Positions 5,996 through 43,732 are shown, numbered from the stretch's first letter. The stretch: DNA of 64,000 nt from Minisyncoccota bacterium (GCA_025449695.1 JANWIW010000036.1:320-64319); one strand, 5' to 3'. Notes: generated from the sequence alone by a model not told the origin. Program-made: numbers and translations.

Positions 5996-6466
5996 ATGGA
6001 CCCGAAGAAGTGGGCGTCCATCGCCCGGATTGTCCGGTTCATGCTCGGCTCCGCCGGCACATTGCACATGGGGGATGAACATTACCTCACGGAAATGATC
6101 AAGCTCGGTATGATCGTCCTCAGGATCACCCGCCTCGAACCGTGGGATGAGGTGAATGAAGGGCAGCCGAAAGGAGAGGTCACGCTCGAGCCCAAGTTCA
6201 CTCCGCATTACCGGAAGCTCGTCGACCTGGGACCGAAGTACGACAAGCTTCAGCAATTGGCTCTGATCCTGGGCACTGCCCGCATCAACGAGGCCGGTCT
6301 CTCTGAGGCTCAGGCCTTGCAGGTGAAGAAGCTGCTCAAGAACGCCCACATTCCCATCGGCGACTTCCTCGGCATCGAACGCACCGGCGAGGGGTGGGTA
6401 ATCACCACGATGAAGGGAACTCTTCTCGCGGCCGCCAGCCTCAAGACCTCGCGCCGCGCCCGCTGA
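5996..6466 (+). CDS. hypothetical protein (156 aa)
   Basis: ATG at 5996 preceded by GGGAAGGTGA (SD-like). No recognisable motif. Confidence 0.4.
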   Translation: MDPKKWASIARIVRFMLGSAGTLHMGDEHYLTEMIKLGMIVLRITRLEPWDEVNEGQPKGEVTLEPKFTPHYRKLVDLGPKYDKLQQLALILGTARINEAGLSEAQALQVKKLLKNAHIPIGDFLGIERTGEGWVITTMKGTLLAAASLKTSRRAR

Positions 6467-8368: not shown

Positions 8369-8642
8369 TGCCGCGGGGGTGAATCGAACACCCGACGCCT
8401 TCCTCTTCCGAGGTTTGGACTATCTCATCTTCCCGAAGGAAGTTGGGCGCTTGTGCAGGATTATTGTTGGGACTCACCCGCTAGTCTCTACACCTTCCCC
8501 GCCACCTCTGCCCAGCGGGGCTTGGCTCGGGATTGTCCAAATATTGGAGTTTCCCCGAATTCACCCAATTATTCAATCCGCATTACTGCGGAAGGCCCCA
8601 AAGAGTACTTAGGGAAGCGCTCTGCCACTGAGCTACCGCGGC
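8369..8642 (-). tRNA. tRNA-Phe(GAA) interrupted in the anticodon loop by a group I intron (exons 8611..8642 and 8369..8408)
   Basis: 5' exon GCCGCGGTAGCTCAGTGGCAGAGCGCTTCCCT and 3' exon GAAGAGGAAGGCGTCGGGTGTTCGATTCACCCCCGCGGCA reconstitute a 72-nt cloverleaf: 7-bp acceptor stem, GTTCGATT T-arm, A73, loop CUGAAGA with anticodon GAA. The anticodon call depends on the inferred splice sites. Confidence 0.65.
8409..8610 (-). ncRNA. group I self-splicing intron (202 nt) in the tRNA anticodon loop
   Basis: Conserved group I elements read in the insert: P-like AAUUCGGGGAAAC, Q-like AAUCCCGAGCCAAGCC, R-like GUAGAGACUAGC and S-like AAGAUGAGAUAGUCC (P7 GACUA/UAGUC). The 5' exon ends in U and pairs with intron GGGG (P1 U.G). 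The intron ends in G. The 3' exon start GAAGA can pair with the P1 loop UCUUU (P10). Confidence 0.65.
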
Positions 8643-16380: not shown

Positions 16381-17706
16381 TTATGCTATGCCGGGCACCG
16401 GGAATCTCGCGGTGATCCCCGCGACCTCCGCGCGCACTTCTTTGACCACGCTATTACCTGCAAGCGTTTCCACGAAATCCTTCACCGCCTGGGGACGGGC
16501 CGATTTTTCTTCGGGTAGCTCCGTCGCGCTGAACTCCTTCACTATTTTCGCGATGAGCGTGCCTATGTGCGTCATTTCCGCTTCCTTCATGCCCCGCGTC
16601 GTGAGCGCAGGCGTGCCGAGGCGGACGCCGGATGGATAGAAGGGCGAGGAGGATTCGTTCGGCACCGTGTTCTTGTTCGCGGTGATATGCGCCGCGTCCA
16701 GGGCTTTTTCCAAAAAAACTCCGAGGCCTGGGCGGAAGGGCGTGAGGTCGAGGAGGAGCAGATGGTTCTCGCTGCCGCCCGCGACGAGGCGCAGGCCTTC
16801 CGCCTGGAGCGAGGTCGCGAGCGCCTGCGAGTTCTTCACGATCTGGGCCGCGTATTCCTTGAAGGCGGGGGTTGCGGCCTCTTTCAGCGCCGCGGCGATG
16901 CCGGCGATGGCGTGCTCATGAGGGCCGCCCTGCATGCCGGGAAAGACCGCCTTGTCTATAGCGTCGCCGTACTCTTCTTTAGAGAATATCATCGCCGCGC
17001 GCGGCCCCCGGAGGGTTTTGTGGGTGGTGGTGGTCACGACGTCCGTGAACGGGAAGGGTGAAGGATGCTGGCCGCCGGCGATAAGCCCCGTGATGTGCGA
17101 CGTGTCCGCCATGGAGATCGCGCCGGCCTCTTTGGCGATGTCGTGCATCTTCTTGAAGTCTATGATGTGCGAGTACGCGGTGTAGCCGGAGAGGATCAGC
17201 TTCGGCTTGTGCTCGCGCGCGAGCGACGCGATCGCGTCGTAATCGAGCAGCTCCGTCTTCGGGTCGAGCGCGTAGAACACGAACTTGTACGCCTTGCCGG
17301 AAAGGTTGACAGGCAATCCATGGGTGAGATGTCCCCCAAGAGGAAGGGGCAACGACATCACCGTGTCTCCGAAGTTCAAGAGAGCGAAGTAGACGGCGAG
17401 GTTCGCGGGACTTCCGGAAAGCGGCTGGACGTTCACGCGGTAACCTTCCGCACCAAAGAGTTCCAGGGCGCGGCGCTTGCAAAGATTTTCCACCTCGTCC
17501 ACGTTCACACAACCGCCGTAGTACCGCTTGCCCGGGTACCCTTCCGCGTACTTATTGGTCAGGATCGATCCCATCGCCTCGAGCACCGCCGGGGACACGT
17601 AGTTTTCGGAAGGGATCATCTCCAGGCCGTCCTTCTGCCTCTTCTGTTCCGCGTCGAGCCATTGGTAGAGCTCGGGGTCGTTGGCTTGTAAATTTGGGTA
17701 GTTCAT
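16381..17706 (-). CDS. glyA: serine hydroxymethyltransferase
   Basis: LEMIPSENYVSPAVLEAMGSILTNKYAEGYPGKRYYGG and the PLP-lysine region THKTLRGPR. 441 aa. Confidence 0.97.
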   Translation of the reverse strand: MNYPNLQANDPELYQWLDAEQKRQKDGLEMIPSENYVSPAVLEAMGSILTNKYAEGYPGKRYYGGCVNVDEVENLCKRRALELFGAEGYRVNVQPLSGSPANLAVYFALLNFGDTVMSLPLPLGGHLTHGLPVNLSGKAYKFVFYALDPKTELLDYDAIASLAREHKPKLILSGYTAYSHIIDFKKMHDIAKEAGAISMADTSHITGLIAGGQHPSPFPFTDVVTTTTHKTLRGPRAAMIFSKEEYGDAIDKAVFPGMQGGPHEHAIAGIAAALKEAATPAFKEYAAQIVKNSQALATSLQAEGLRLVAGGSENHLLLLDLTPFRPGLGVFLEKALDAAHITANKNTVPNESSSPFYPSGVRLGTPALTTRGMKEAEMTHIGTLIAKIVKEFSATELPEEKSARPQAVKDFVETLAGNSVVKEVRAEVAGITARFPVPGIA

Positions 17707-19445: not shown

Positions 19446-20171
19446 ATGAAAAAGATTATTGCGGCGGCGGGCCTTATCGCCGTCATCGCTCTCGCGGTTG
19501 CAGCGCCGGCCAGCGCGGGAACGAACGCTTCCGCGAATGGCAGCGCCCGCACGGCGGTGAGCATCAACCCTGCGGGCAAGGTGCATCTTGCGGGCGCCGT
19601 TACGGCCGTTTCCGCCAGCTCCCTTACGGTAGCGAGCTGGCTCGGCAATTGGACGGTGAACATCGGGGCTGATACCCGCTTGAGCGCCAACACGGACGGC
19701 AAGAACGGGAAAGAGCAGATCGCGATCGGACAGATCCGCGTGGGCGACCGCGTGGCAGTGGACGGAGCGATCGCTTCCGGCATGACGGTGAGCGCCAACT
19801 CGGTGATCGACGTTTCGCTGAACCCGAACGCGCCGAGAAAGATCCTTGCCGGCGTCATCTCGAATCTTAACGCCGCGGCGCGCAGCTTCACGCTGACGCT
19901 CAAGAACGACACCACGGCCACCGTGAACCTGGCTTCCGATGCGAGCCTGCGCATCGGCAAGACCGTCACTACGACCGTAGCGAGCCTTCAGAACGGCATG
20001 CGCGTAAGCGTGTCCGGCGAGTGGAACCAGAGCACCAACACGTTGCTCGGCAAGCAGCTTGTCGGCATCGACGCTGCGACTGCTGCTAAAGTTGAAGCCA
20101 AGCACGATCACGACGGCAAGGCGAACGGCGGCCTGAAGCTCTTGATGAAGAGGCTTCTCGGCTGGCGGTAA
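19446..20171 (+). CDS. secreted DUF5666-like beta-rich protein (paralog of 52..582)
   Basis: Signal peptide MKKIIAAAGLIAVIALAVAAPASA. Repeated VTAVSASSLTV / RVGDRVAVDG segments. Confidence 0.5.
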   Translation: MKKIIAAAGLIAVIALAVAAPASAGTNASANGSARTAVSINPAGKVHLAGAVTAVSASSLTVASWLGNWTVNIGADTRLSANTDGKNGKEQIAIGQIRVGDRVAVDGAIASGMTVSANSVIDVSLNPNAPRKILAGVISNLNAAARSFTLTLKNDTTATVNLASDASLRIGKTVTTTVASLQNGMRVSVSGEWNQSTNTLLGKQLVGIDAATAAKVEAKHDHDGKANGGLKLLMKRLLGWR

Positions 20172-25863: not shown

Positions 25864-26106
25864 CTAAATACTGTCGTAAGTTTTCTCGCTGCGGCGCTCG
25901 ATAAGCAGGATGAGAACCGCTCCCTCTTTCGCGCGGTACACGATTCGCAGATCTCCCTTTCTAACCCGGAAAATGTCGTCTCTACCTTGGAGCTTTTTGA
26001 TATCCAATCCCTGCAACTTACCCGCTGCCAGTTTAGTAAGCACGTCTTTAACGCGGCTTCTTTCCTTGGAGGTAAGCTTCTGTAAGGCTTTCTCGATTGC
26101 GTCCAT
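25864..26106 (-). CDS. type II toxin, RelE/ParE family
   Basis: 80 aa. ...IFRVRKGDLRIVYRAKEGAVLILLIERRSE... is the RelE/ParE C-terminal signature. Starts 1 nt after the upstream antitoxin ORF. Confidence 0.75.
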   Translation of the reverse strand: MDAIEKALQKLTSKERSRVKDVLTKLAAGKLQGLDIKKLQGRDDIFRVRKGDLRIVYRAKEGAVLILLIERRSEKTYDSI

Positions 26107-26374: not shown

Positions 26375-26397
26375 AACAAATATAGGGTCAGGAATAC
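26375..26397 (+). repeat. 23-bp direct repeat, copy 1 (GGGTCAGGAATACGCTCGTATAA)
   Basis: Perfect match to 26772..26794. The two copies bracket the GIY-YIG gene. Confidence 0.9.
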
Positions 26398-26415
26398 GCT
26401 CGTATAAGAGTGTTT

Positions 26416-26688
26416 TCAGCTGTGCTTATAACCTAATTCTTCAAAGCATTCCTCTAGCTGCACCTTCAACTCTGACTTTCCTTTGCCACCCTTCAAGAAT
26501 TTCTCCCGGCGCTTAGCGTCTATTTCGGAGAGGTATGATTCGTAATAGACTAATCTCACTGGACGCCGATTCCTAGTGGCAAGAACATAGCCATTTTTGT
26601 GTTTCTCGATACGGACCTTAAGATCCGGCGTGTAGCCGGTGTAAAGTTCGCCATCCTTCTCGCTAAATAAGATGTACACATAGTACAT
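26416..26688 (-). CDS. GIY-YIG nuclease family protein (YhbQ/UPF0213-like), second copy
   Basis: MYYVYILFSEKDGELYTGYTPDLKVRIEKHKNG is a canonical GIY-YIG N-terminus. Confidence 0.75.
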   Translation of the reverse strand: MYYVYILFSEKDGELYTGYTPDLKVRIEKHKNGYVLATRNRRPVRLVYYESYLSEIDAKRREKFLKGGKGKSELKVQLEECFEELGYKHS

Positions 26689-26771
26689 TGGCCCAGCTTA
26701 ACTGTTTTATATCAATACTATCTAAATTGCTTGGGTGGTCAGCTTAGCTGACCATAACCCACGCTAAGCGT

Positions 26772-26794
26772 GGGTCAGGAATACGCTCGTATAA
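26772..26794 (+). repeat. 23-bp direct repeat, copy 2
   Basis: Identical to 26375..26397. Preceded by two GC hairpins (GGTCAGCTTAGCTGACC and CCCACGCTAAGCGTGGG). Confidence 0.9.
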
Positions 26795-31396: not shown

Positions 31397-31801
31397 CTAC
31401 GACCAAAGAGAGAACTTCTTGGTCAGTTCATCAAGCGTACTTTTCTCCCCAACAATGCAGATGCCATAATACTCTAGTTCCAGCTCAGGGGTATCCTTGG
31501 ATCGCTCAACTTGCTCTTCCCATCCTCCAACTGTCATGGCGCTAGTAAACGACGCGAAAGGAATGCCTTTCTCGACACAAACATTACGAAGCGCCCGTAT
31601 CTTGTTGGAGTTATCGGCCCGGAGAATGATGTAAGGCCACTTCGAGGCCATGTGCATGCCTCCATCCTTGTCTGCATAGCTTATGACGCCCATATCAACT
31701 TCTGGATGCGAGTTCACTAGGCCCACTGTCATGTGAGCTAAGGCGTTCATTATTTTACCTGTTTCAATCTTCTTATTTAGAACGGCGACGAATTTAGTCA
31801 T
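31397..31801 (-). CDS. DUF2000-like small protein (134 aa), last gene of the AT-rich operon
   Basis: MTKFVAVLNKKIETGKIMNALAHMTVGL resembles the start of DUF2000 family proteins. Recalled from memory, not verified. Confidence 0.4.
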   Translation of the reverse strand: MTKFVAVLNKKIETGKIMNALAHMTVGLVNSHPEVDMGVISYADKDGGMHMASKWPYIILRADNSNKIRALRNVCVEKGIPFASFTSAMTVGGWEEQVERSKDTPELELEYYGICIVGEKSTLDELTKKFSLWS

Positions 31802-31825
31802 GATGATGTAGGTTCTTTGAGAAGT

Positions 31826-32959
31826 TTAGGGCATAGTTGGTATGAAATCGGCATCATCGAATGGATAGTAGCGATTTACGTAAACATTGTTCACAACAAT
31901 TTTTCCTTCTGTCTGTATATACTGCAAAGATATCTTCAGTTTTTTTTCTTCGTCTGCTCCGCGCATGCTTCTCATAAAGCCCGATTCGTAAGCGGTAACT
32001 CTGTTATAGATCAACCCCTTTTCACGCTCTTGAGTTTTACGTTGGATTACCTTGAGGCCTACATCAACATTAAAGATTCCTGGAGAATCTTCGCGGATAT
32101 CGAGTATGTTAAGTCCTAGAAAATCATATCCTCCTTTTACTAATTGGTCATCGGCAGTCTCTCCGAAAAAACTCATTTGTGTTCTAGATGCGTGCGCCCA
32201 AAAGTTATCTCTGCCTGGGCTTGTGACCAAAAGAGTATTTACCTGTAGCATAATTTCTCCGATTTTCCTTTTTATCTCATCTTCAACTAATGAGTGCTTT
32301 CTTTTCAACTCAAGATTTAAAACCAATTCTTTATCCAGATATTCTTTTAATTCGGGCAGGGTGCTCAAGATAGTAAGGCTGTTCTTTGAAAAAACTGCGA
32401 ATTCTTGGCTCAATTCGTCTACTTTAAAATCTTCTGTGTTATTTGTACAAAAAATATAGTGGCTTTCTTTATTCTCCTTAACATCGGCAAGAATAGTGAG
32501 CCAAATAAGCGTATCTTTAAATCCTTTGTCTCCTTTGTTTGCGAATGGAGGTATGTGACGCAGAGATCTTTCGACTAAGTCCTTGGTAGGAATTGTCGGC
32601 AGAGGAAGCAATGCTATATCGTTAGCCTTCAAAAACTTTGTTCCCTCTTCGCGCAAAGCTTTTTCCACATCACGTTCTGAGAGTTCTATCTTGTCCTCTT
32701 TCGTAGTAAATGGCTTCAGCTTTTCAACAGCATCTTCATGTTTTGCAATCACTGCCTGTACAACATCAAATCTCTGGGCAACTCTCTCTTCCAGGACTAC
32801 CGTGGGAACTTTAACCTCTACATTGCTCTTAAGATCGTTCTCATCTAGAAATGATAAAAGATCTTCAAAAGATGTGTTGAATATCTGGTCTAGTTTCTCC
32901 TCTCTGTCACGCCACAAAAAATTAGTATCCAGTACGACATTGAATTTCTTTTTATTCAT
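31826..32959 (-). CDS. PIN-like nuclease-domain protein (DUF4935-like N-terminus) with unknown C-terminal domain
   Basis: N-terminal VVLDTNFL...E...D...D acidic tetrad pattern of PIN-like folds. 377 aa. About 35% GC. Confidence 0.5.
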   Translation of the reverse strand: MNKKKFNVVLDTNFLWRDREEKLDQIFNTSFEDLLSFLDENDLKSNVEVKVPTVVLEERVAQRFDVVQAVIAKHEDAVEKLKPFTTKEDKIELSERDVEKALREEGTKFLKANDIALLPLPTIPTKDLVERSLRHIPPFANKGDKGFKDTLIWLTILADVKENKESHYIFCTNNTEDFKVDELSQEFAVFSKNSLTILSTLPELKEYLDKELVLNLELKRKHSLVEDEIKRKIGEIMLQVNTLLVTSPGRDNFWAHASRTQMSFFGETADDQLVKGGYDFLGLNILDIREDSPGIFNVDVGLKVIQRKTQEREKGLIYNRVTAYESGFMRSMRGADEEKKLKISLQYIQTEGKIVVNNVYVNRYYPFDDADFIPTMP

Positions 32960-32976
32960 GGTTTATCTAAGGATTA

Positions 32977-33690
32977 CTATGGAGTTCGCATTGCCCCTCC
33001 TTGATGCAAATTGATGTGCATGAATCTTTCTTCCTCCACGGAAATTGTACGACTTCTAAAGACATCTTCGATAACAAAATTCTTTGTATTGAAATCTTCT
33101 TGAAATTTTTTGGCGTAGAAATTTCTCAAAATGAAACCTATAAACATATTGGGGGTAATTGGAGAGCATAGAGGAAGACGACAATCTGCATATTGAGAAA
33201 TATGAAGATGACTTCTGGGATGAGCCATATTAACAAAGCTGTGAGGCGCGTAATCAAATCTCAGGGGGACTGGTAGCTCTACCATTGCAAGCGCCGAGCT
33301 TTCACCGGAAATATCTTCATTATCAACATCCAATTCGGCTTTTGGAATATAGCAAAGCCGATGTCCAAGAAGATCATTTCCATTGAACTGGTACATCATT
33401 TGCACCAAGGCTCCATCAAAAAGCTCGAAGTTATAGTTCTTTACTTTTATCAAAGCCTTATAAGCCTCCGCATAAGGAATGCCGCCCAACAAAGGCCCCA
33501 AAGAGGACTGTCCTGCCCAGGTTATCTCAATTTGACGCCCGTTCTGGCGAGCACTTGGAAAGTTCTGATTTACAACCCATCCTTTACCAATCAAATCTTC
33601 TGTTATCTTCTTAATCTCCTTAATAACTGCGGTGGGGGTGCTAGATATCCTCATCACCAAGAAATATTTTTTTAAGTTGTTCGCGAACAT
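32977..33690 (-). CDS. hypothetical protein (237 aa) translationally coupled to the upstream helicase
   Basis: Overlaps the helicase 3' end by about 50 nt. No recognisable motif; a DUF2290-type partner is only a guess. Confidence 0.45.
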   Translation of the reverse strand: MFANNLKKYFLVMRISSTPTAVIKEIKKITEDLIGKGWVVNQNFPSARQNGRQIEITWAGQSSLGPLLGGIPYAEAYKALIKVKNYNFELFDGALVQMMYQFNGNDLLGHRLCYIPKAELDVDNEDISGESSALAMVELPVPLRFDYAPHSFVNMAHPRSHLHISQYADCRLPLCSPITPNMFIGFILRNFYAKKFQEDFNTKNFVIEDVFRSRTISVEEERFMHINLHQGGAMRTP

Positions 33691-35740
33691 CAGGATCTAT
33701 ATTTTCAAATCTAATTTTTTCCTCATTTAGGTCTTGAATCAACTTTATTAAGTTTTTGTTGCTTCGATCTATCTCTCTATGTTCGTCTGTTGTTTTCTCG
33801 CGATTAAGAACGTTAATCTTTTCCATTGCCTTAAGGGTTGGGTACGTAAAATCCAATGTAAAGTTATTGGTCTTAACTTGCTCAAACTCTTCTATTAACA
33901 TATCCATCTTTGGCCCTACTCCATAGACTCTAACCCAGGCCTTGCTACGCGTCATCGCTGTAAAAAGAATATTTCTTCGCTTTATTATATCGGACCCAAT
34001 ATAAACATATTCTGCGTTGAGAACGTAAACCATTGGGGCTTCGTTCCCTTTCACACGATGAATACCAGAAAGTGTTACAGAATTGTCTTGGTAAAATTCA
34101 TCGCGAGAACTTGTAACTCCTACTATATGAGAATTTATTTTTTTCTTAAAAAGAATTTCAGATAATGGACCTAAGGCTTGAGGAGTAATAAAAGGGTCTG
34201 CGTTAATTACCACGATATCTCTAGTTTGAAGCTCTTCCTTTCTTAAGTTTTTTATAATCTCTTCCGCAACTGATTGAATTTGCTCGGTGTTATTTTTAAA
34301 AGTCTTAAAGACTATAATATCCTCTGCCGGAGAATGTTCTTGAAGAAAGATTGGGCTCGTATCATTAGTACGCTTAAGCCTTACTTTCCTACCATATCCC
34401 AAATCACCACTTTCCACTTGATATCCAATATCTCGCCACAAGGATGGATCATCGAACATCTGGACGAGACCTTCTTGGCGATATATTCCGAAACCTAGAG
34501 CATGGGCAGTTACCAGTACGGGGGCAGAATTTCTATAGCACTTCTCAAGAATAATGTCTTCTTTCGGTTTGTTTGGCTCATTATGAAGCTCGCGCCCCAA
34601 AACTTCTTTCGTGCTGCGCATCGAGGCTTCGTTTAACTTCTGAAGTTCATCGTAAGCCCAAATCAACCTTTTCGGTTTTCTCAATATTGCATAGCAAAGC
34701 TTAAGAAAAGAATCTGAAAAATCTTGCGCTTCATCAATTAGAATAGCGTCATATGTCTCTCTGAACTCATTTTTTTGCTCTAGCGCTTTACTGCAAACTA
34801 AGTCAAATTTATCTCTTCCCCAAGAAGCTGACTCCTTTGAAGTTCGTACATCCATGAACGAAATCCCGTTGTTTACACATATTTCAAAATAGATTCCCGG
34901 AGAACTTGCGCTTCCCCAGGCATGAAGTATCTTCACTTTTTCCCAGTCAGGCTCTTCGTTTTTTTGTTCAATTGTGAACTTAGTTATCAGATCCTTGAAC
35001 TGTCCTTTCAAGGATCTGGAGCTAAATGTTACAGCTATATTCCAATCGGGATGGGTCGAATGCAAGTAAGCAGCTTTTAATGCCAGGATGATGGTTTTTC
35101 CAGAACCTGCTAATCCTCTAATCCTCTGGGGACCCTCTGCGCTCTCAATCACAGCCGCACTCTGATGTCTGTCTAAATTCGCAATTGAATTCTCTAGGTT
35201 TCTAACTTTTGCTCCGCGAGAGTCGCTTTTTACAGTTTCCGGACGCTTTATACCTGCTCTCAATTTCGTAACCGCCTGTACTACAGAAACAAGATGCCTA
35301 AATGTGGTTTCTGACACAGGAACAAGCGTCGAAGACAAAAGGTCGCGCAATCCATCATTGTTTAAAAGTATGTCGGGATCAAGATTGGCCTGGCGACAGC
35401 CAGGTGCATAAGTAACTACATTGACTTCAACCTTCAACTTCCTTTTATCAACTAATTCTTTGTACTGAAGAAGCTTAGCATTTAAGTTATTGTATATTTC
35501 ATCCCTTTTCTGTAGATGATCACTTTGAATGCTGTCTCCCTCTACCAAGTCGAATACTACAAGGCCGTATTGGTTCGAAACGAACATCGCATCTAAAACC
35601 AATGCCCCATTGGGGGTCCCTACGATTGGATAGCCGGTGTACAGTATGCCGCTCAAATCAGCAGACCTACTTCTGAAATAGTCCAACAGTAATCCCGTAG
35701 ATACAGGCTTGGTGTTCGACCCATTGATGACCTCAACCAT
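33641..35740 (-). CDS. superfamily-1 helicase (UvrD/Rep-like ATPase core) with NERD-like N-terminal domain
   Basis: Walker A GLAGSGKT, Walker B ILIDEAQD, motif VI MTRSKAWVRVYG. N-terminal YPIVGTPNGALVLDAMFVSNQYGLVVFDL resembles the NERD nuclease-related domain. Confidence 0.8.
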   Translation of the reverse strand: MVEVINGSNTKPVSTGLLLDYFRSRSADLSGILYTGYPIVGTPNGALVLDAMFVSNQYGLVVFDLVEGDSIQSDHLQKRDEIYNNLNAKLLQYKELVDKRKLKVEVNVVTYAPGCRQANLDPDILLNNDGLRDLLSSTLVPVSETTFRHLVSVVQAVTKLRAGIKRPETVKSDSRGAKVRNLENSIANLDRHQSAAVIESAEGPQRIRGLAGSGKTIILALKAAYLHSTHPDWNIAVTFSSRSLKGQFKDLITKFTIEQKNEEPDWEKVKILHAWGSASSPGIYFEICVNNGISFMDVRTSKESASWGRDKFDLVCSKALEQKNEFRETYDAILIDEAQDFSDSFLKLCYAILRKPKRLIWAYDELQKLNEASMRSTKEVLGRELHNEPNKPKEDIILEKCYRNSAPVLVTAHALGFGIYRQEGLVQMFDDPSLWRDIGYQVESGDLGYGRKVRLKRTNDTSPIFLQEHSPAEDIIVFKTFKNNTEQIQSVAEEIIKNLRKEELQTRDIVVINADPFITPQALGPLSEILFKKKINSHIVGVTSSRDEFYQDNSVTLSGIHRVKGNEAPMVYVLNAEYVYIGSDIIKRRNILFTAMTRSKAWVRVYGVGPKMDMLIEEFEQVKTNNFTLDFTYPTLKAMEKINVLNREKTTDEHREIDRSNKNLIKLIQDLNEEKIRFENIDPDVREQLKKIFLGDEDI

Positions 35741-36163: not shown

Positions 36164-36664
36164 TTAGTTTTCTTTCAGTTTCACAAGTGCCGCGTCTTTC
36201 ATGGTTGTGCTGTTCGTTTGTACCGATTGGAACAGTGTCCCAATAATAGACTTGGCATCCGCAGCATTTTGTACATTACTTTTCTGGAACAACTCCACAA
36301 TTACAGGAACAACCTCTCGGAAGTTCTCTCGGGTAATTTGGGTTGCCTTAGCAAGCAATTCGACCACTTCTGAGGTGCTATCTACATCTTTGCCAAGAAC
36401 AGAGTACAGTGGACCGAAACCCACAGCGACTTCCTCAAAGTTCAATCCTGTAAGATTTGATATATCATTTATTTTTGCCTCGGCTCGTTCCACTTCTTCG
36501 GCGGTCATCCCCGTTCTGCCTTGAAGCGTAGCTATGGCTTCTTGGCGCTGTGCCGCTCCGACAAATCCCCAGATCAAGAACGCCACCACCGCTAACAAGA
36601 TTATTCCAGTGATGATCCGGTGACGGCCAAACCAGTTCGTAGTTTTTGTATTTTCTTTATCCAT
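36164..36664 (-). CDS. membrane-anchored hypothetical protein
   Basis: Start at MDKENTKTT. One TM helix (IITGIILLAVVAFLIWGFVGAA), then a soluble domain. Confidence 0.4.
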   Translation of the reverse strand: MDKENTKTTNWFGRHRIITGIILLAVVAFLIWGFVGAAQRQEAIATLQGRTGMTAEEVERAEAKINDISNLTGLNFEEVAVGFGPLYSVLGKDVDSTSEVVELLAKATQITRENFREVVPVIVELFQKSNVQNAADAKSIIGTLFQSVQTNSTTMKDAALVKLKEN

Positions 36665-36765
36665 TATTTTATTTTGGCTTAATTTGAATCTACGGTAGCG
36701 GCGACCTTGTAGCAAAAAACCCGCCACCAGTTGGCCTTTCGGCCTGCAGGAGTTTCCCCCTGCAA

Positions 36766-36806
36766 CGCAAGACGCGTCCCTGATGACGGGATCTTTGCGT
36801 CTTGCG
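36766..36806. repeat. 41-bp hairpin in the divergent intergenic region (CGCAAGACGC ... GCGTCTTGCG)
   Basis: 10-bp perfect stem with a structured loop. It sits where GC content shifts. Candidate operator or recombination site. Confidence 0.5.
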
Positions 36807-36906
36807 ATTTTGAGCCATGCCGTGCAGTCTTCCGCATCGGTTTAGGCTATCCAGCCGTATGTAGTTGTATTCAAATCCTATAGTGTTCCCGCGCTATAAT
36901 CAACGC

Positions 36907-37623
36907 ATGGGAATTGCTCCAATTAAGCTGAATACCGGCCTGGAAATGGAGTTCCTGCGCTGTTGCAAAAGAGAATCGTTCCAAAAGGAGGTCATGGAGC
37001 AGCGTAAGTTGTTGAACATTCCAGGCCAAGGTTTCGAATCCGCTGAGAAGTTTCTAATCCAACAGCTCTTAACTGCGAAATTAGTTGATGTGAACCAGAA
37101 ATACAAGAACTTGAACAAAGGAGCTGCTGAGATTTGTGAAAAACTAGGGTTGCCCATGTATCTGAACAATTTAGTAGAGGCCTATATGGTGCTTGGAGAT
37201 GGATTTAGGGAGTACACATACAACTCTTTTTGGTCTACGGAGGCCGGGTGTCAAATAGACAGCTTAGGAGCGCTAAGAATTGTAAAAATTTATCCTGGAG
37301 CCTCCCGACCGCGAGTACTTAAGTTTATAAATAAAAATTGGGAGATCCTTGCAGGAGGACCTACGTTCAAACAGAGAAATCAGCCCAAGTCGAAACAGCT
37401 TCGTAAACGGCCCAGGGAGGAGAGGGATGAGAAGATATATAAATACTATAAGGCCGGGCTGGTTAGGTATGATGGAAGACCGAATATAAAGAACATCCAG
37501 GAGTTAGTTAAGAAGCCCAACGACAGATTTGTCGGGTTAAAAGATGTAGATCCATTCTTCGCAAGTATGAGAACGGATACTATCCGCAACATTATCAAGA
37601 TCCAGCGCAAGAGACAGCGTTAG
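36907..37623 (+). CDS. hypothetical protein (238 aa), Lys/Arg-rich C-terminus
   Basis: ATG directly after a TATAAT box (possibly leaderless). No recognisable motif. Confidence 0.4.
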   Translation: MGIAPIKLNTGLEMEFLRCCKRESFQKEVMEQRKLLNIPGQGFESAEKFLIQQLLTAKLVDVNQKYKNLNKGAAEICEKLGLPMYLNNLVEAYMVLGDGFREYTYNSFWSTEAGCQIDSLGALRIVKIYPGASRPRVLKFINKNWEILAGGPTFKQRNQPKSKQLRKRPREERDEKIYKYYKAGLVRYDGRPNIKNIQELVKKPNDRFVGLKDVDPFFASMRTDTIRNIIKIQRKRQR

Positions 37624-37792
37624 GAATCTGTCTGGGGGACGTTAATCAGGTTCAAATAAGCAGCCTTCACGGCTACTCTTATTACTTTAAACTCGGCCTT
37701 AAAGGTCGAGATGGAACACAACGAACAAACAATTGAAGATGTTCTCGAAGAGCTGGCTCAACAGCTCGCGGACATCTTTATCGAACAAATAG

Positions 37793-38125
37793 ATGAAAAG
37801 TGCAAAACAGAAGATGAAACGCGAGATACTCCCATCTGACGCTGGAAGGCCAATGTCCGAAGAGGAAAAGGTAGGCTATCTCCAAAACTTGAATCCAATA
37901 TTGCGCACTATCGTTGAGGTGGGAGAGGCTATTCTTTCCTACCAGCCTTTTGTGCCTGTGGCCAACGATAGAGTAATTGGCGACTTGGATGAATTCCTTT
38001 TGCGGCAAAATATCTCCGAGGGATTCGAAAGCCTGGGAGCAGCCTACCGTGAGATCTCAACCAAATGCATGCTCCTGGCGGCGGCAGTAAATCTCTACAC
38101 AGACTACATAATTGATGAAGAGTAG
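37793..38125 (+). CDS. hypothetical protein (110 aa)
   Basis: Overlaps the next ORF. No motif. Confidence 0.3.
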   Translation: MKSAKQKMKREILPSDAGRPMSEEEKVGYLQNLNPILRTIVEVGEAILSYQPFVPVANDRVIGDLDEFLLRQNISEGFESLGAAYREISTKCMLLAAAVNLYTDYIIDEE

Positions 38126-38483
38126 CGCCGGAAGGTTCGTAATCCTTTACTGGTCAGCTCTGACAGATTTCGGACTTTCCATCCATGAAGCCGCGCTGCT
38201 CCAACTATACTGCAGCTTATCGAACAATAGGGGGTATTCCTACGCGAGCATAGTCACTTTGGCGCGGATCATGGGCCTGTCAAAGCAAACCATCCGCAAC
38301 CTCAACTGGTCGCTAAGCGAGGCAGAGCTGATAACTATCGCCTATCGGCAAGGGCAAAAGTTCAACCGCGTGGTGGTATCCTCCAAATGGAAATCTTACA
38401 TAGGCCTGGAGGGACATGGCGACGGTTCTTCCGTGCTTAACGAGGACCTTTGGGGAACGGACGAGGATGATAAAAAATCTTGA
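38112..38483 (+). CDS. winged-helix/HTH DNA-binding protein, replication-initiator or regulator-like
   Basis: YSYASIVTLARIMGLSKQTIRNLNWSLSEAELI is an HTH of the kind found in phage/plasmid replication-organiser proteins. Confidence 0.4.
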   Translation: MMKSSAGRFVILYWSALTDFGLSIHEAALLQLYCSLSNNRGYSYASIVTLARIMGLSKQTIRNLNWSLSEAELITIAYRQGQKFNRVVVSSKWKSYIGLEGHGDGSSVLNEDLWGTDEDDKKS

Positions 38484-38659
38484 GGGGTGTCGGAGAGAGT
38501 CAAAAAATTGGGGCTGGGGAGCTCAAAATAGTTTATGCGCCGGGCTCCAATTTCTTGAGCCAATATATATAAATGATAAGAATAAAAATAACTTGTAATT
38601 GCATCCTTCGGATCAATTACACTCTCTCTAATTTAAATTAGGGTGCCATCCCTTAAAAA

Positions 38660-40456
38660 GTGTTGGAAAATAAAAAGATGGAAAACAACAAAGTTGCGGC
38701 GATCTACTGCCGCGTCAGCACGGAGGACCAGGCCACCCATGGGATCTCCATAGAAGCGCAGGAGAGGGTGTGCGGCGAGGTCATCGAAAAAGAAGGGTAC
38801 GCCCTGCTTGAGGTCATCAAAGACGAGGGCAAGAGCGGCGGGAACCTGAACCGAGCAGGCATTAAGAGGCTAAAAGAACTCTGCGAGAAGAAGCTCATTA
38901 CCGCCGTTTTCATGGTCCATGCGGACCGCCTCTCCCGCAACACGGCCGACTACATCGGCATGATGGACTTCTTCAAAGAGAAAGGCGTCATGGTCCGCTT
39001 CGTATATCAGCCAACGATGGACCGCAGCACCGCCACCGGACAAACCATGGACACCGTGATGGCGGTGTTCAACGAACACTTCCGCCTGACCATCAAAGAG
39101 AAGACGAAGGCCACGCTCGACCAAAAGGCAAAGGCTGGGCTCTTCCCCGGCACCGCACCGTTAGGCTACATGAACGTGGACAATCCCTCGCCAACAAAGA
39201 TAGGCAAGCGCATCATCGCGCCTGACCCCGTAGGCGCTCCGTTCGTCCAGGAAGCCTTTAAGCTTTATGCCACAGGCAACTATAACGGCTTCGAGCTGAA
39301 CGAAATGATGTACCGGAAGGGTTTCCGCACCAAACGGGGCCTGAAGGTCCACCTAAGCCGCTTCTACGGCATGCTGGTGAACCCCATCTACGTCGGCGAA
39401 CTGCATTGGGGTGACATCCATCTCTCCAGGGCGCAGCACGAACCGCTTATAGACCGTGACCTGTTTGATAAAGTGCAGCGGGTCATGGCGGCGCATAACA
39501 AGCATGCCACTCGGAAGAGGAAATACACATTCCTCCTGCGAGGGTTCCTGAGGTGTCAGGAGCACCGGGACCGCAAGTACACGGCAGGACACACGGCCAA
39601 GCCCAGCGGCCTCATCTTTTCCTACTACCACTGTACGAACCGCTTCGGTTGTGCAGGCGGCTATGTGGACACGGATACACTGGAAGGTGAGGTGGCCTTG
39701 GAGTTTAAAAGACTGAAGTTTTCGGAAAGCTTCACAAACCGGGTCATCGGGAAAGCGAAGGCCGAGTTCGATGCCCGGCGCAAATCTTATGAACAGAAGA
39801 TAGCTCGCTTGGATGGCCAAAGGAATAAGCTATTTGCCCGCCGAAAGATCGCGGAGACCAAGATGTTCTCCGGCGTGCTTTCGGACGATGACTTTACCCG
39901 GATCAGGCAGGAGATAGCCGATGAGGTGAAGGTTATAGACGGCGAAAAGGCGAAGCTCGAGCAGCAGGACCACATACGGGTGGATATCGCTCAGGAGATA
40001 ACGGCTTTTATGCGAGATATGTACGCCACGTACAAAAAGGCTCATCCCATCCAGCAACGCCATTACCTAAACCTGTTCTTTGAACATCTGTTTGTCTATA
40101 AGGGCAAGGTCCAAGAGGTCGCGTGGAGCGGCCTCTTTGCTTCTTTGCTCAATTTGCAACATATAGAACAACAGAAAACCACAGGGAATATGGACCCAGT
40201 TAAAATAAGCTATGCCTGGGGTGCCCGACGGGATTTGAACCCGCAACCACTTCTGCCACAGAGAAGTGCTCTACCGTTGAGCTACGGGCACCATAGGTAC
40301 GGCGCAATTCTACCGCACCGCAGCCGATCCTTCAATCTTCATTCTGTATTAGGCCGTCTGCACTACGCTGGGGAATACGCGGAGGCCATCTGGACACCGC
40401 CTCGTGAAAAGTCCTACAATAGGAGGACTTCGCCGGACCGCACATCCCAAACATGA
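38660..40456 (+). CDS. large serine recombinase (resolvase/invertase N-domain, recombinase domain, zinc-ribbon); 3' tail reads antisense through tRNA-His
   Basis: AAIYCRVSTEDQ...S catalytic Ser region, YVGELHWGDIHLSRAQHEPLIDRDLFDKVQ recombinase domain, Cys cluster CQEHRDRKY...YYHCTNRFGC. No in-frame stop until the ATGA overlap with ftsH. The last ~80 codons lie antisense to tRNA-His and are low complexity. Confidence 0.75.
   Translation: MLENKKMENNKVAAIYCRVSTEDQATHGISIEAQERVCGEVIEKEGYALLEVIKDEGKSGGNLNRAGIKRLKELCEKKLITAVFMVHADRLSRNTADYIGMMDFFKEKGVMVRFVYQPTMDRSTATGQTMDTVMAVFNEHFRLTIKEKTKATLDQKAKAGLFPGTAPLGYMNVDNPSPTKIGKRIIAPDPVGAPFVQEAFKLYATGNYNGFELNEMMYRKGFRTKRGLKVHLSRFYGMLVNPIYVGELHWGDIHLSRAQHEPLIDRDLFDKVQRVMAAHNKHATRKRKYTFLLRGFLRCQEHRDRKYTAGHTAKPSGLIFSYYHCTNRFGCAGGYVDTDTLEGEVALEFKRLKFSESFTNRVIGKAKAEFDARRKSYEQKIARLDGQRNKLFARRKIAETKMFSGVLSDDDFTRIRQEIADEVKVIDGEKAKLEQQDHIRVDIAQEITAFMRDMYATYKKAHPIQQRHYLNLFFEHLFVYKGKVQEVAWSGLFASLLNLQHIEQQKTTGNMDPVKISYAWGARRDLNPQPLLPQRSALPLSYGHHRYGAILPHRSRSFNLHSVLGRLHYAGEYAEAIWTPPREKSYNRRTSPDRTSQT
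40217..40292 (-). tRNA. tRNA-His(GTG) with encoded G-1 and CCA
   Basis: G-1 + GTGCCCG acceptor pairing with C73, anticodon loop CTGTGGC, T-arm GCGGG-TTCAAAT-CCCGT, 3' CCA encoded. Confidence 0.9.
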
Positions 40457-43151: not shown

Positions 43152-43659
43152 GTTTCTCCTCGTACGGACGTTTAGTGTCATCGGGGATGTCGGCGTGGGT
43201 GGCGCGCCAGAGTGCGTTGGGTAGGTAAGTGAAACGTCAATCAAGTAACCCACTACTCAGTGCTCGGCATTAACGCGGCCGTCGCGTCAGCATCCTTTTC
43301 AGACAATCATATCTAGCGTCCTCCTATTTGTCAGACACACAACAATTCAGTTGTGAACGTACTCTGTGGCACCCATGCCCCCCAGATAGTTGAAAAGTAC
43401 CATGTATGCAAATTCCGTCAACCTTATGTATCCCCAGGTAATCCGGCAACCCGTTTGCCGGATACATATTCTGAAAATTCCTTGTATTTCCTACAAAGAA
43501 AGCATCTCCGTAACTCGATCGAAGGATGGATATTCGACAAAGCCCTCCTTCGCCAAGGCTTCGGAAGGACGCAGCGCGGGGCACAGCCCCACTTCGCTCT
43601 TTCGAGCTACGCGAGGCACAGCAAAATCTAAGCCTCGATTACTCGGCAAGATTTTTTAG

Positions 43660-43732
43660 TGCGCGTGCCTGGACTCGAACCAGGAACCGCCAAGGTATAA
43701 GCTTGGTGCTCTAACCATTGAGCTACACGCGC
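43660..43732 (-). tRNA. tRNA-Ile(TAT)
   Basis: GCGCGTG acceptor, GCTC-AATGGTTA-GAGC D-arm, anticodon stem CCAAG/CTTGG with loop CTTATAC, CCTGG-TTCGAGT-CCAGG T-arm, discriminator A. Confidence 0.75.

Follow-up and report, generated by a model that had tools for sequence, protein, structure and literature searches.

The window, i.e. the whole 64,000-nucleotide stretch of DNA that was analysed, contains an intact tRNA-His gene just upstream of ftsH, with a large serine recombinase gene converging on it from the left and a series of foreign-looking genes beyond. The following features are relevant:

26416-26688, minus strand: GIY-YIG gene, marking by synteny how far left the island could at most extend (match in the relative L241)
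31397-35740, minus strand: probable cargo operon (PADLOC and Pfam matches, GC content 0.36-0.44)
31397-31801, minus strand: DUF2000 protein (Pfam)
31826-32959, minus strand: PIN_12 protein (Pfam)
32977-33690, minus strand: DUF2290 protein (PADLOC PDLC02999, 1.2e-54)
33641-35740, minus strand: UvrD-like helicase (PADLOC Helicase PDLC03002, 5.5e-290)
36164-36727, minus strand: 187-codon ORF for a membrane-anchored protein, the first gene downstream of LOOT, with a probable ATG near 36665
36733-36848, minus strand: LOOT RNA (Rfam RF03000, 72.7 bits; fold z = -6.1)
36865-37623, plus strand: 252-aa protein of a small family, the first gene right of LOOT, with a probable start at 36907
37793-38125, plus strand: 110-aa hypothetical protein (ORF listing)
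38112-38483, plus strand: winged-helix protein of 123 aa directly upstream of the integrase (HTH_36/DnaD_N-like)
38660-40456, plus strand: large serine recombinase (integrase) ORF, 598 aa (Resolvase, Recombinase and phrog_95 matches)
40192-40246, no strand: putative attR junction, P arm plus tRNA 3' end (placed from the breakpoint and motif of relatives)
40217-40292, minus strand: intact tRNA-His(GUG) with G-1 and CCA encoded (ARAGORN, Rfam and reading of the sequence)

The identity of the long ORF as a large serine recombinase, proposed in an earlier sequence-only reading, is borne out by matches to PF00239 Resolvase (2.1e-30, residues 13-160) and PF07508 Recombinase (3.4e-10) in Pfam and to the phrog_95 integrase in PHROGs (3.3e-83); the best match to a solved structure is the N-terminal domain of TP901-1, and PF13408 is on record for many homologs. 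In an alignment of integrase homologs (A1) the catalytic residues R18/S20 and D89/R90/R93 and the zinc ribbon columns C299, H302, C325 and C331 are invariant, and the protein is full length with no frameshift. The start in the public record is the ATG at 38678, giving a protein of 592 aa (P0001). The ORF listing of the window places the first in-frame stop at 40454-40456, and reading of the sequence shows this TGA overlapping the ATG of ftsH (FtsH_ext, AAA and Peptidase_M41 domains in Pfam) at 40453; the two agree with the earlier description of an ORF that stays open, antisense through tRNA-His, as far as an ATGA overlap. The tRNA itself is called by ARAGORN at 40217-40291 on the minus strand and scores 68.4 bits in Rfam; its CCA reads as TGG at 40217-40219 and G-1 at 40292 pairs with C73 at 40220, as had been seen from the sequence. 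Integrase homologs are usually 515-545 aa long, and the conserved part of the protein stops at about residue 519-521 (40216-40222). Residues 520-598 are a tail read from host DNA, comprising antisense tRNA-His and the spacer to ftsH. The tail in the window is unusually long; that frame happens to have no stop.

Between the integrase and LOOT lie the winged-helix gene and two hypotheticals, all three already recognized in the earlier reading. The 123-aa protein matches HTH_36 in Pfam and replication-initiator and DnaD-like PHROGs, and proteins of the same family occupy the same position in L002, L084, L375 and L004; it may serve as a replication initiator, a regulator or a directionality factor. 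The 110-aa protein has no family match in Pfam, PADLOC, PHROGs or other profiles, and the 252-aa protein is likewise assigned to no family of known function; the latter has 28 distant relatives, is weakly similar to the same-position genes in L002 and L016, and gave no fold match with an AF2 model of pLDDT 85. The core of the closest clade consists of LOOT, an approximately 250-aa protein without assigned function, a small ORF, the winged-helix DnaD_N/HTH_36 protein and the integrase, with a RepA- or primase-like protein replacing the winged-helix protein in some relatives.

A strong 41-bp hairpin at 36766-36806 had been noted at the left of this gene group. It is real, and the Rfam match identifies it as the central helix of a LOOT RNA, which scores 72.7 bits against a gathering score of 46.4 over model positions 1-121, folds far better than shuffled sequences, and has compensatory changes in 17 of 27 alifold pairs in a five-sequence alignment. 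In the literature found, LOOT (RF03000; Weinberg et al. 2017) figures only as an sRNA from metagenomes whose function is unknown. It precedes the recombinase by 1.6-3.6 kb in the window and in 15 relatives, among them L001-L005, L014, L016, L017, L081, L083-L085, L373 and L375, and it also occurs in seven IMG/VR contigs bearing terminase or portal genes. It is transcribed leftward, away from the integrase, and a co-oriented gene always comes next. LOOT belongs to the element family; its context, in serine-integrase islands at tRNAs and beside packaging genes in viral contigs, adds to that description.

The run of the recombinase ORF into a tRNA gene is a trait of the family and not chance. A complete ORF is available for 60 relatives. 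In 39 of these an antisense tRNA lies where the ORF ends, overlapped by the ORF in every case (39/39; 21 tRNA-His and 11 tRNA-Asn), and a same-strand tRNA was found there in none of the 60; in three further relatives (L002, L003 and L081) group I introns interrupt the tRNAs in this position. Where a tRNA is adjacent, the integrase gene always converges on its 3' end and the frame always continues into it. The C-terminal tails of database homologs are likewise reads of antisense tRNA (ESNPxP, GFEPGP, DSNLEP). The nearest relatives, L373 and L375/L376 (50-56% identity), are also at tRNA-His, and dozens of unrelated genomes have members of the recombinase family at the 3' ends of tRNAs. The elements occur mostly in CPR bacteria, with further hosts among Melainabacteria, Elusimicrobia, Armatimonadota and Dehalococcoidia. 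The family is a widespread, uncharacterized group of large serine integrases whose target is the 3' edge of tRNA genes, above all those for His and Asn.

Comparison with host relatives revealed empty sites, since in L241-L245 the order tRNA-His (minus strand), ftsH (plus strand), tRNA-Ile(UAU), a 198-aa gene, tRNA-Gly, TyrRS and ClpP is kept without the recombinase; the recombinase is not core to the lineage. Homologs of the genes of the module were absent from the empty-site relatives compared, and a motif search did not find LOOT at their loci. The FtsH proteins of these genomes are 74-78% identical to that of the window; at only this level of identity, variation in the DNA upstream of tRNA-His is to be expected anyway. 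The empty sites, together with the presence of the family at tRNA 3' ends elsewhere, sustain the earlier proposal of an integrated element or its remnant using tRNA-His as its attachment site.

The position of the junction can be approached through pairs of relatives. L091 and L093 share 95.8% identity across 11.7 kb, ending ...ACCGTTTGGGGTG; they are identical up to ...TTGGGGTG and divergent beyond, and the breakpoint is exactly ...TGGGGTG, i.e. the first bases of the tRNA 3' end. Beyond it L093 continues into tRNA-His and L091 into unrelated DNA, such that the same integrase carries two different tails. Because the two diverge at this point, the crossover probably falls within the last codons of the integrase. 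L026 and L028 part about 7 nt into tRNA-Asn, and the motif GTTATATTA/ATAATAAG is conserved in relatives 18-21 nt ahead of the tRNA body. In the window, tRNA-His would be the attachment target and form the B' arm of attR, the P arm (...CAGTTAAAATAAGCTATGCC) lying in the last codons of the integrase and followed by the tRNA 3' end (TGGGGTGCC...), with a predicted crossover near 40217-40223, a position taken from relatives at about 36% protein identity and not from the window's own element. L091 may represent a second insertion site or a misassembly instead of attP. An approximately 40-nt tRNA-like piece follows the integrase in L377, and some members could have a longer stretch of tRNA mimicry, with the crossover further inside the tRNA.

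Taken together, we consider it likely that a genomic island has inserted at the 3' end of tRNA-His in this Liptonbacteria-like Patescibacteria genome, that the region is its integrase-proximal end (attR side), and that this island belongs to a family of tRNA-edge serine-integrase elements. In such an element attP would overlap the integrase gene over its final ~25 bp, with a 2-bp crossover at about the CCA, discriminator and first acceptor bases. Integration would leave the tRNA intact and duplicate at most a few bases, so that no long repeat would arise, and would take away the integrase's own 3' end and stop codon. The ORF in the integrated state in the window crosses the antisense tRNA to a chance stop at the ftsH start, 79 codons on. 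The element's cargo would lie on the far side of LOOT, here probably the helicase-DUF2290/PIN_12/DUF2000 operon.

That operon is probably element cargo on the analogy with relatives and on GC content only. The arms left of LOOT in relatives carry restriction-modification, Abi-like and terS-like genes, and the cargo beyond LOOT is common to L091 and L093 at 96% identity. The helicase and DUF2290 genes of the window overlap on the same strand and both PADLOC models matched, suggesting a candidate defence pair; the 187-codon ORF gave only sub-threshold tape-measure matches in Pfam. GC content is ~0.36-0.50 from ~26 kb to 38.6 kb, compared with 0.56-0.67 (~0.60) in the flanks, and the low-GC island runs on leftward of LOOT without a break, as far as ~31.4 kb or 26.7 kb. 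The island probably has its right end near 40217-40223 and its left end beyond LOOT, at ~31.4 kb or 26.7 kb. The outermost marker is the GIY-YIG gene, 80% identical to a GIY-YIG gene of L241, an empty-site relative in which 89 bp separate that gene from tRNA-His; the window's gene may itself be mobile, because 23-nt repeats flank it. The small 3.7-kb module of 36728-40456 that had been outlined from the sequence is not supported: its final 234-240 bases, which comprise the tRNA, the spacer and the beginning of ftsH, belong to the host and are merely read into by the ORF, the low-GC island runs past LOOT, and the left limit at 36728 separates off nothing meaningful, the hairpin there being an RNA of the element family transcribed leftward.

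The earlier failure to find a direct repeat of the tRNA 3' end was repeated here, a search of the window giving only chance matches of 11-14 nt, and no displaced tRNA fragment or direct repeat was found at the far end in the window or in 27 relatives; crossover by the serine integrase at the very 3' edge of the tRNA would account for this. Nor was attL recognized, as the window holds no inverted or direct copy of attR above chance: the best attR-like match (27/55) lies inside the intact helicase ORF, and 4 of 30 shuffled sequences reached the best local alignment score. Serine integrases have att arms too degenerate for detection by self-similarity, and this failed search therefore says little.

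It is quite conceivable, if on balance not what we would expect, that the element is grounded, i.e. its integrase end is fixed at tRNA-His, its far end lost or scrambled and excision lost, with the read-through ORF decaying or of low activity. The lack of a recognizable attL in the window would fit such a state, as would the demonstrable left truncation of relatives such as L006 and the seemingly composite make-up of the island, whose stretch from 26.9 to 31.4 kb holds TrmB-like regulators, DapF and a gene of 57% GC. Set against this, the integrase is full length with all catalytic and zinc-ribbon residues kept and no frameshift, and the degeneracy of the att arms leaves the missing attL with little weight. 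A grounded element would in any case be a state of the tRNA-edge island and not a different identity for it.

A self-contained mini-element of ~3.4-3.7 kb, made up of three small genes and the integrase with the LOOT hairpin as its left terminus and the helicase-DUF2290 genes as an older, separate insertion, appears improbable. The fairly constant distance from LOOT to the recombinase would suit it, but LOOT points outward to a co-oriented gene, the cargo of relatives, including that shared by L091 and L093, lies beyond it, and the low-GC island is unbroken leftward. L006 has only a 3.1-kb block (two ORFs and the integrase) beside host-like genes; its left edge, however, truncates a conserved element ORF, which indicates a deletion rather than an att site. 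A weak inverted stretch resembling the tRNA T arm (36861-36899, just right of LOOT) is within chance, and no such site recurs by LOOT in other loci.

The prevalence of the recombinase beside tRNA-His in CPR genomes (21 of the 39 adjacent tRNAs) might suggest that the host has domesticated the enzyme for a cellular function at tRNA-His/ftsH, e.g. a regulated rearrangement, and that it is no element integrase, but this is very improbable given that the nearest host relatives lack it, that different lineages use different tRNAs and have variable cargo, that its composition is foreign to the host, and that it co-occurs with LOOT, an RNA that viral contigs carry as well. That an ordinary recombinase gene lies beside the tRNA and lacks a stop by coincidence, or through an artefact of ORF calling, which a single locus with a tail long only for want of a stop could not exclude, is scarcely credible and is ruled out by the 39/39 antisense, ORF-overlapped tRNAs, with none on the same strand, and by tRNA-antisense tails in database proteins from many sources.

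The tRNA-edge integrase resembles the phiC31, Bxb1, TP901-1, A118/LI and CcrB integrases in having a resolvase catalytic domain, a recombinase domain and a zinc ribbon with a putative coiled coil in the same order, and it shares with the large serine integrases of phages and islands the absence of long att repeats, as expected for a 2-bp crossover. These enzymes are nevertheless only distant kin (the CcrB model gives 117 bits against a cutoff of 900), and characterized members of the phiC31 type have protein-coding or intergenic targets and an attP outside the gene, whereas here the target would be a tRNA 3' end and the att site would lie within the integrase's last codons. Genome engineering favours serine integrases over other enzymes, and the general assumption is that they avoid tRNA genes.

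Use of tRNA targets by serine integrases was described in 2020 as unreported and needing proof: Mageeney et al. (2020; TIGER) predicted 14 of 297 S-Int islands at tRNA/tmRNA genes and called them unproven, and a preprint by Hackl et al. (2020) reported a large serine recombinase in 27 of 937 tycheposons. Those islands and tycheposons, like the present family, have a large serine recombinase at a tRNA; they bring along genes for replication, cargo for defence or adaptation and at times terS. Among the relatives of the window's element, AAA_25/RepA-like or primase-like genes, terS-like genes and restriction-modification systems occur. Compared with tycheposon or PICI-like modules, the window has only the DnaD_N/HTH_36-like winged helix and no packaging gene. 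Tycheposons are delimited by partial tRNA repeats, whereas none was seen in the window. In the literature found on these islands, the CPR family, the ORF-through-tRNA layout and the LOOT link are not described.

An integrase ORF that spans attP and acquires a new 3' end on integration is known from phage Mx8 (IntP/IntX) and SSV-type tyrosine integrases, and the integrase ORF here may do likewise: it crosses the predicted att junction, as do those of 39 of 39 relatives. The Mx8 and SSV enzymes, unlike the window integrase, are of the tyrosine family, which is unrelated to the serine family; SSV integration cuts the integrase gene into two parts, while the exchange here would affect no more than a short tail. 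Mx8 also inserts at a tRNA 3' end, that of tRNA-Asp. The altered C terminus changes activity in Mx8. It is a speculative and rather unlikely extension that free and integrated integrase isoforms with different C-terminal tails (element-encoded, as against antisense-tRNA-encoded or non-stop) act as a switch of activity or stability, that LOOT is the element's regulatory RNA heading a cargo/packaging arm, and that a new class of tRNA-edge-targeting elements shapes CPR genomes and is a source of tRNA-directed integrase tools. Such a switch would parallel, in a serine recombinase, Mx8 IntP/IntX or integration-dependent immunity.

A large natural clade of conserved layout at the 3' ends of tRNA-His and tRNA-Asn would provide many candidate integrases, and nearly every bacterium of a lineage would have their attB. 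Over-long 'recombinase' proteins that end in tails of the ESNP or DLNP type are explained as read-through into tRNA genes, and such tails could serve for the automatic location of att junctions. LOOT, an orphan Rfam family, gains its first genomic context. The mobile elements of CPR bacteria are poorly mapped, and this integrase family would explain part of the genomic variability of the CPR.

The enzyme encoded upstream of ftsH in the window is a genuine large serine recombinase, with Resolvase and Recombinase domains and a match to a PHROG integrase family (3.3e-83); all characterised large serine recombinases are only distantly related to it. Its ORF is intact and, as the sequence-only reading had described, meets no stop before the ftsH overlap (TGA at 40454-40456, ftsH ATG at 40453), passing antisense through tRNA-His. 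The ORF list, ARAGORN, Rfam and inspection of the sequence agree on this arrangement:

38660-40456, plus strand, recombinase ORF, 598 aa with a GTG start (ORF list)
40217-40291, minus strand, tRNA-His(gtg) (ARAGORN; Rfam, 68.4 bits)

The public record starts the recombinase at an ATG at 38678, giving 592 aa. Both the CCA of the tRNA (TGG at 40217-40219) and its G-1 (G at 40292, paired with C73 at 40220) are encoded. The winged-helix protein and two hypothetical proteins reported upstream are also present; the former (123 aa) is of the HTH_36/DnaD-like replication-initiator type, and the latter (110 and 252 aa) have no family match. The 252-aa protein, whose gene adjoins the LOOT RNA described below, has 28 distant relatives and a confident structure model, for which a fold search gave no match.

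Comparison with relatives indicates that the recombinase locus is an insertion and not a core gene. By its FtsH the host belongs with Liptonbacteria-like Patescibacteria, and three relatives with FtsH 74-78% identical (L241/L242, L243 and L244/L245) share with the window the order tRNA-His (minus), ftsH (plus), tRNA-Ile(UAU), a 198-aa gene, tRNA-Gly, TyrRS, ClpP and H+-PPase, with no recombinase left of tRNA-His. The empty site that was to be sought in relatives thus exists, and the possibility that the recombinase belongs to the core genome of the lineage finds no support in these loci; the proposal of an integrated element or remnant at tRNA-His was right in kind. On the left, an SHMT gene (16387-17700) and a DUF5666 gene (19521-20051) are conserved anchors, and a GIY-YIG gene 80% identical to that at 26416-26688 lies 89 bp from tRNA-His in L241 and 13.5 kb from it in the window. 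The GC content is 0.36-0.50 over about 26-38.6 kb versus about 0.60 outside.

Some further features of this region deserve mention. The tRNA-Ile (43659-43732, minus strand) has the rare UAU anticodon and occupies the same place in L241-L245. The 90-aa GIY-YIG gene is flanked by perfect 23-nt direct repeats (26385-26407 and 26772-26794; 0 expected by chance) and has after it small hairpins whose loops read GCTTAGC/GCTAAGC (26738-26775), a hairpin type that abuts tRNA-His in L241; together, gene, repeats and hairpins could form a small mobile cassette. Just outside the island lies an 80-aa ParE-like toxin gene (25864-26106, minus strand).

Read-through into a tRNA characterises the recombinase family as a whole. 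Homologs in the databases, mostly from Patescibacteria and typically of 515-545 aa, align with the window protein to about residue 520, after which many continue as tails (ESNPEP, GFEPGP or DSNLEP) that are antisense translations of tRNA T-arms. Among 60 relatives with a complete ORF, drawn from species-representative genomes, metagenomes and viral contigs, 39 have an opposite-strand tRNA whose 3' end meets the ORF end, and no same-strand tRNA occurs there in any. All 39 ORFs overlap their tRNA, with the stop inside it in 30 cases and beyond it in nine; the targets are His (21), Asn (11), Glu (3), Leu (2), Ala (1) and Val (1). Those closest to the window protein (L373, L375 and L376; 50-56% identity) are likewise at tRNA-His. 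The hosts comprise Patescibacteria, Gastranaerophilales, Elusimicrobia, Fimbriimonadales and Dehalococcoidia, and close relatives of the recombinase are almost absent from the viral collection. Since its length and sequence differ between loci, the tail seems to be a by-product, with a regulatory role as a conceivable alternative.

Three loci, L002, L003 and L081, are apparent exceptions in which the tRNA at the ORF end is split by a group I intron. The tRNA genes of these CPR genomes often contain such introns, some of which carry LAGLIDADG ORFs, and because ARAGORN misses intron-split tRNAs, the target of some integrases is hidden. Examples are:

Window, 8399-8620, minus strand, group I intron
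L002, 11580-11764, group I intron
L003, 11609-11884, group I intron
L081, 11600-11848, group I intron
L375, 12236-12471, group I intron

A half-tRNA in the attP of L002-L004 was considered and rejected for L002 and L003, which have whole tRNAs split by introns; L004 resembles them, with no intron called there. In L377 (10250-10330), a degenerate piece of about 40 nt resembling the tRNA-His 3' end comes after a close homolog (P0005) and before an ABC transporter gene; no tRNA is called.

Pairs of related elements point to where strand exchange may occur. Over 11.7 kb of cargo, small genes and integrase, L091 and L093 share 95.8% identity, which ends at ...GGTTATATTAGATACCGTTTGGGGTG; past this breakpoint L093 continues with tRNA-His and ribosomal-protein genes, and L091 (from 11685) with unrelated DNA. 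L091 may be misassembled, may represent the free form with its attP, or may sit at a second target site. In the pair L026 and L028, the point of divergence is about 7 nt inside tRNA-Asn. CPR members share a motif, GTTATATTA, that precedes the tRNA body by 18-21 nt regardless of which tRNA it is, with the variants GTTAAAATAAG in the window and ATTATAATAAG and GTATAATAAG in L373 and L375. This spacing is that expected of the outer recognition motif in a serine-integrase half-site. From these divergence points and the motif spacing, we infer an attP inside the integrase end, overlapping the gene's final ~25 bp, with strand exchange at the CCA, discriminator and first acceptor bases. Integration would then leave the tRNA intact, displace no tRNA fragment and cost the integrase its own stop codon; past the putative junction (attR), the window's ORF has 79 further codons, read from host DNA. 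In the empty sites, the sequence immediately downstream of tRNA-His (L244 9711-9735; L241 6985-7005) seems faintly to resemble the integrase-encoded P arm of attR (window 40192-40216), with the shared pattern ACCC..GT.AA..GCTA..GGGG, a likeness expected if the same enzyme binds both.

The strong hairpin picked out earlier is a real structure, and more exactly the long central helix of a LOOT RNA (Rfam RF03000), in a region with a fold z of -6.1:

36733-36848, minus strand, LOOT (Rfam, 72.7 bits over the full model)

LOOT was found in every close relative with enough upstream sequence, lying 1.6-3.6 kb upstream of the recombinase (L001-L005, L014, L016, L017, L081, L083-L085, L373 and L375). 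With few exceptions it is encoded on the other strand from the integrase and has a co-oriented gene after it, with restriction-modification, Abi-like and terS-like genes beyond. It is absent from a more distant tRNA-His subgroup (L006, L007, L088, L093 and others) and, by motif search, from the empty-site loci. A loose pattern search gave chance hits only; a stricter pattern gave seven hits in IMG/VR contigs (L366-L372), all seven Rfam-confirmed at 76-94 bits. These copies adjoin terminase, portal, terS-like or serine-recombinase genes, a neighbourhood that suggests carriage by phage-like elements. The literature searched describes LOOT as a metagenomic sRNA of unknown function, and no more. 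Given the context in the relatives and the IMG/VR neighbours, LOOT appears to belong to CPR phages and phage-like islands, heading an arm divergent from the replication/integration module.

The extent proposed earlier, 36728-40456, was wrong: the right end would be at about 40217-40223, not 40456, and the left end beyond LOOT. Downstream of LOOT the minus-strand run is unbroken (GC 0.36-0.44), encoding a 187-codon membrane protein, a UvrD-like helicase, DUF2290, a PIN_12 protein and a DUF2000 protein. The helicase and DUF2290 match both PADLOC candidate-defence models end to end (5.5e-290 and 1.2e-54):

31397-35740, minus strand, helicase-DUF2290, then PIN_12 and DUF2000, in one operon-like run

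By analogy with relatives, this run would be cargo, with a left end near 31.4 kb. Synteny with L241 allows an end as far as 26.7 kb; the stretch at 26.9-31.4 kb, which encodes TrmB-like regulators, DapF and a methyltransferase-like protein, may belong to the host or be older.

As the sequence-only reading had noted, the window has no direct repeat of the tRNA, as would follow from the enzyme class and crossover position. The search for partial tRNA-His copies as att sites (repeat finder, blastn-short) gave only chance hits of 9-14 nt in the window, and nothing consistent in 27 relatives. The far end (attL), sought as an inverted image of attR, did not rise above chance (ungapped 55-mer scan; local alignment with shuffles). 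Two candidates, an inverted match at 34914-34937 and an 11-mer at 31674-31684, were rejected, since each falls within an intact ORF with full domain matches. An intergenic gap of L375 (about 6101-6155) has an inverted match of 28/55, a borderline candidate for attL; the finding did not extend to other loci. A seemingly crisp left homology boundary among L006, L007, L088 and L093 was dropped; homology is lost gradually within a conserved ORF, the point at which L006 is truncated. As attL was not found, and L006 shows left truncation of such elements, the element in the window is quite possibly a grounded remnant, despite its intact integrase.

tRNA targeting by large serine recombinases has hitherto been predicted only rarely. 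TIGER predicted 14 of 297 S-Int islands at tRNA targets, calling such targeting unreported and in need of experimental proof, and 27 of 937 tycheposon-type elements in Prochlorococcus have a large serine recombinase. Like tycheposons and PICI-like satellites, the elements of this family appear modular, combining an integrase, a replication gene and terS or cargo at a tRNA, although the window itself has only the winged-helix protein of replication-initiator type and no packaging gene; unlike them, they use a serine integrase throughout, lack tRNA-fragment repeats and carry LOOT. A precedent for a new integrase 3' end comes from a tyrosine integrase, that of Mx8, whose int gene contains attP and on integration receives a different 3' end, with altered enzyme behaviour; Islander makes explicit provision for integrases that 'extend across attP'. 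The single locus is of moderate interest; it is the family-level pattern, of integrases that target tRNA edges with a putative attP inside the gene, and their association with LOOT, that is worth pursuing.
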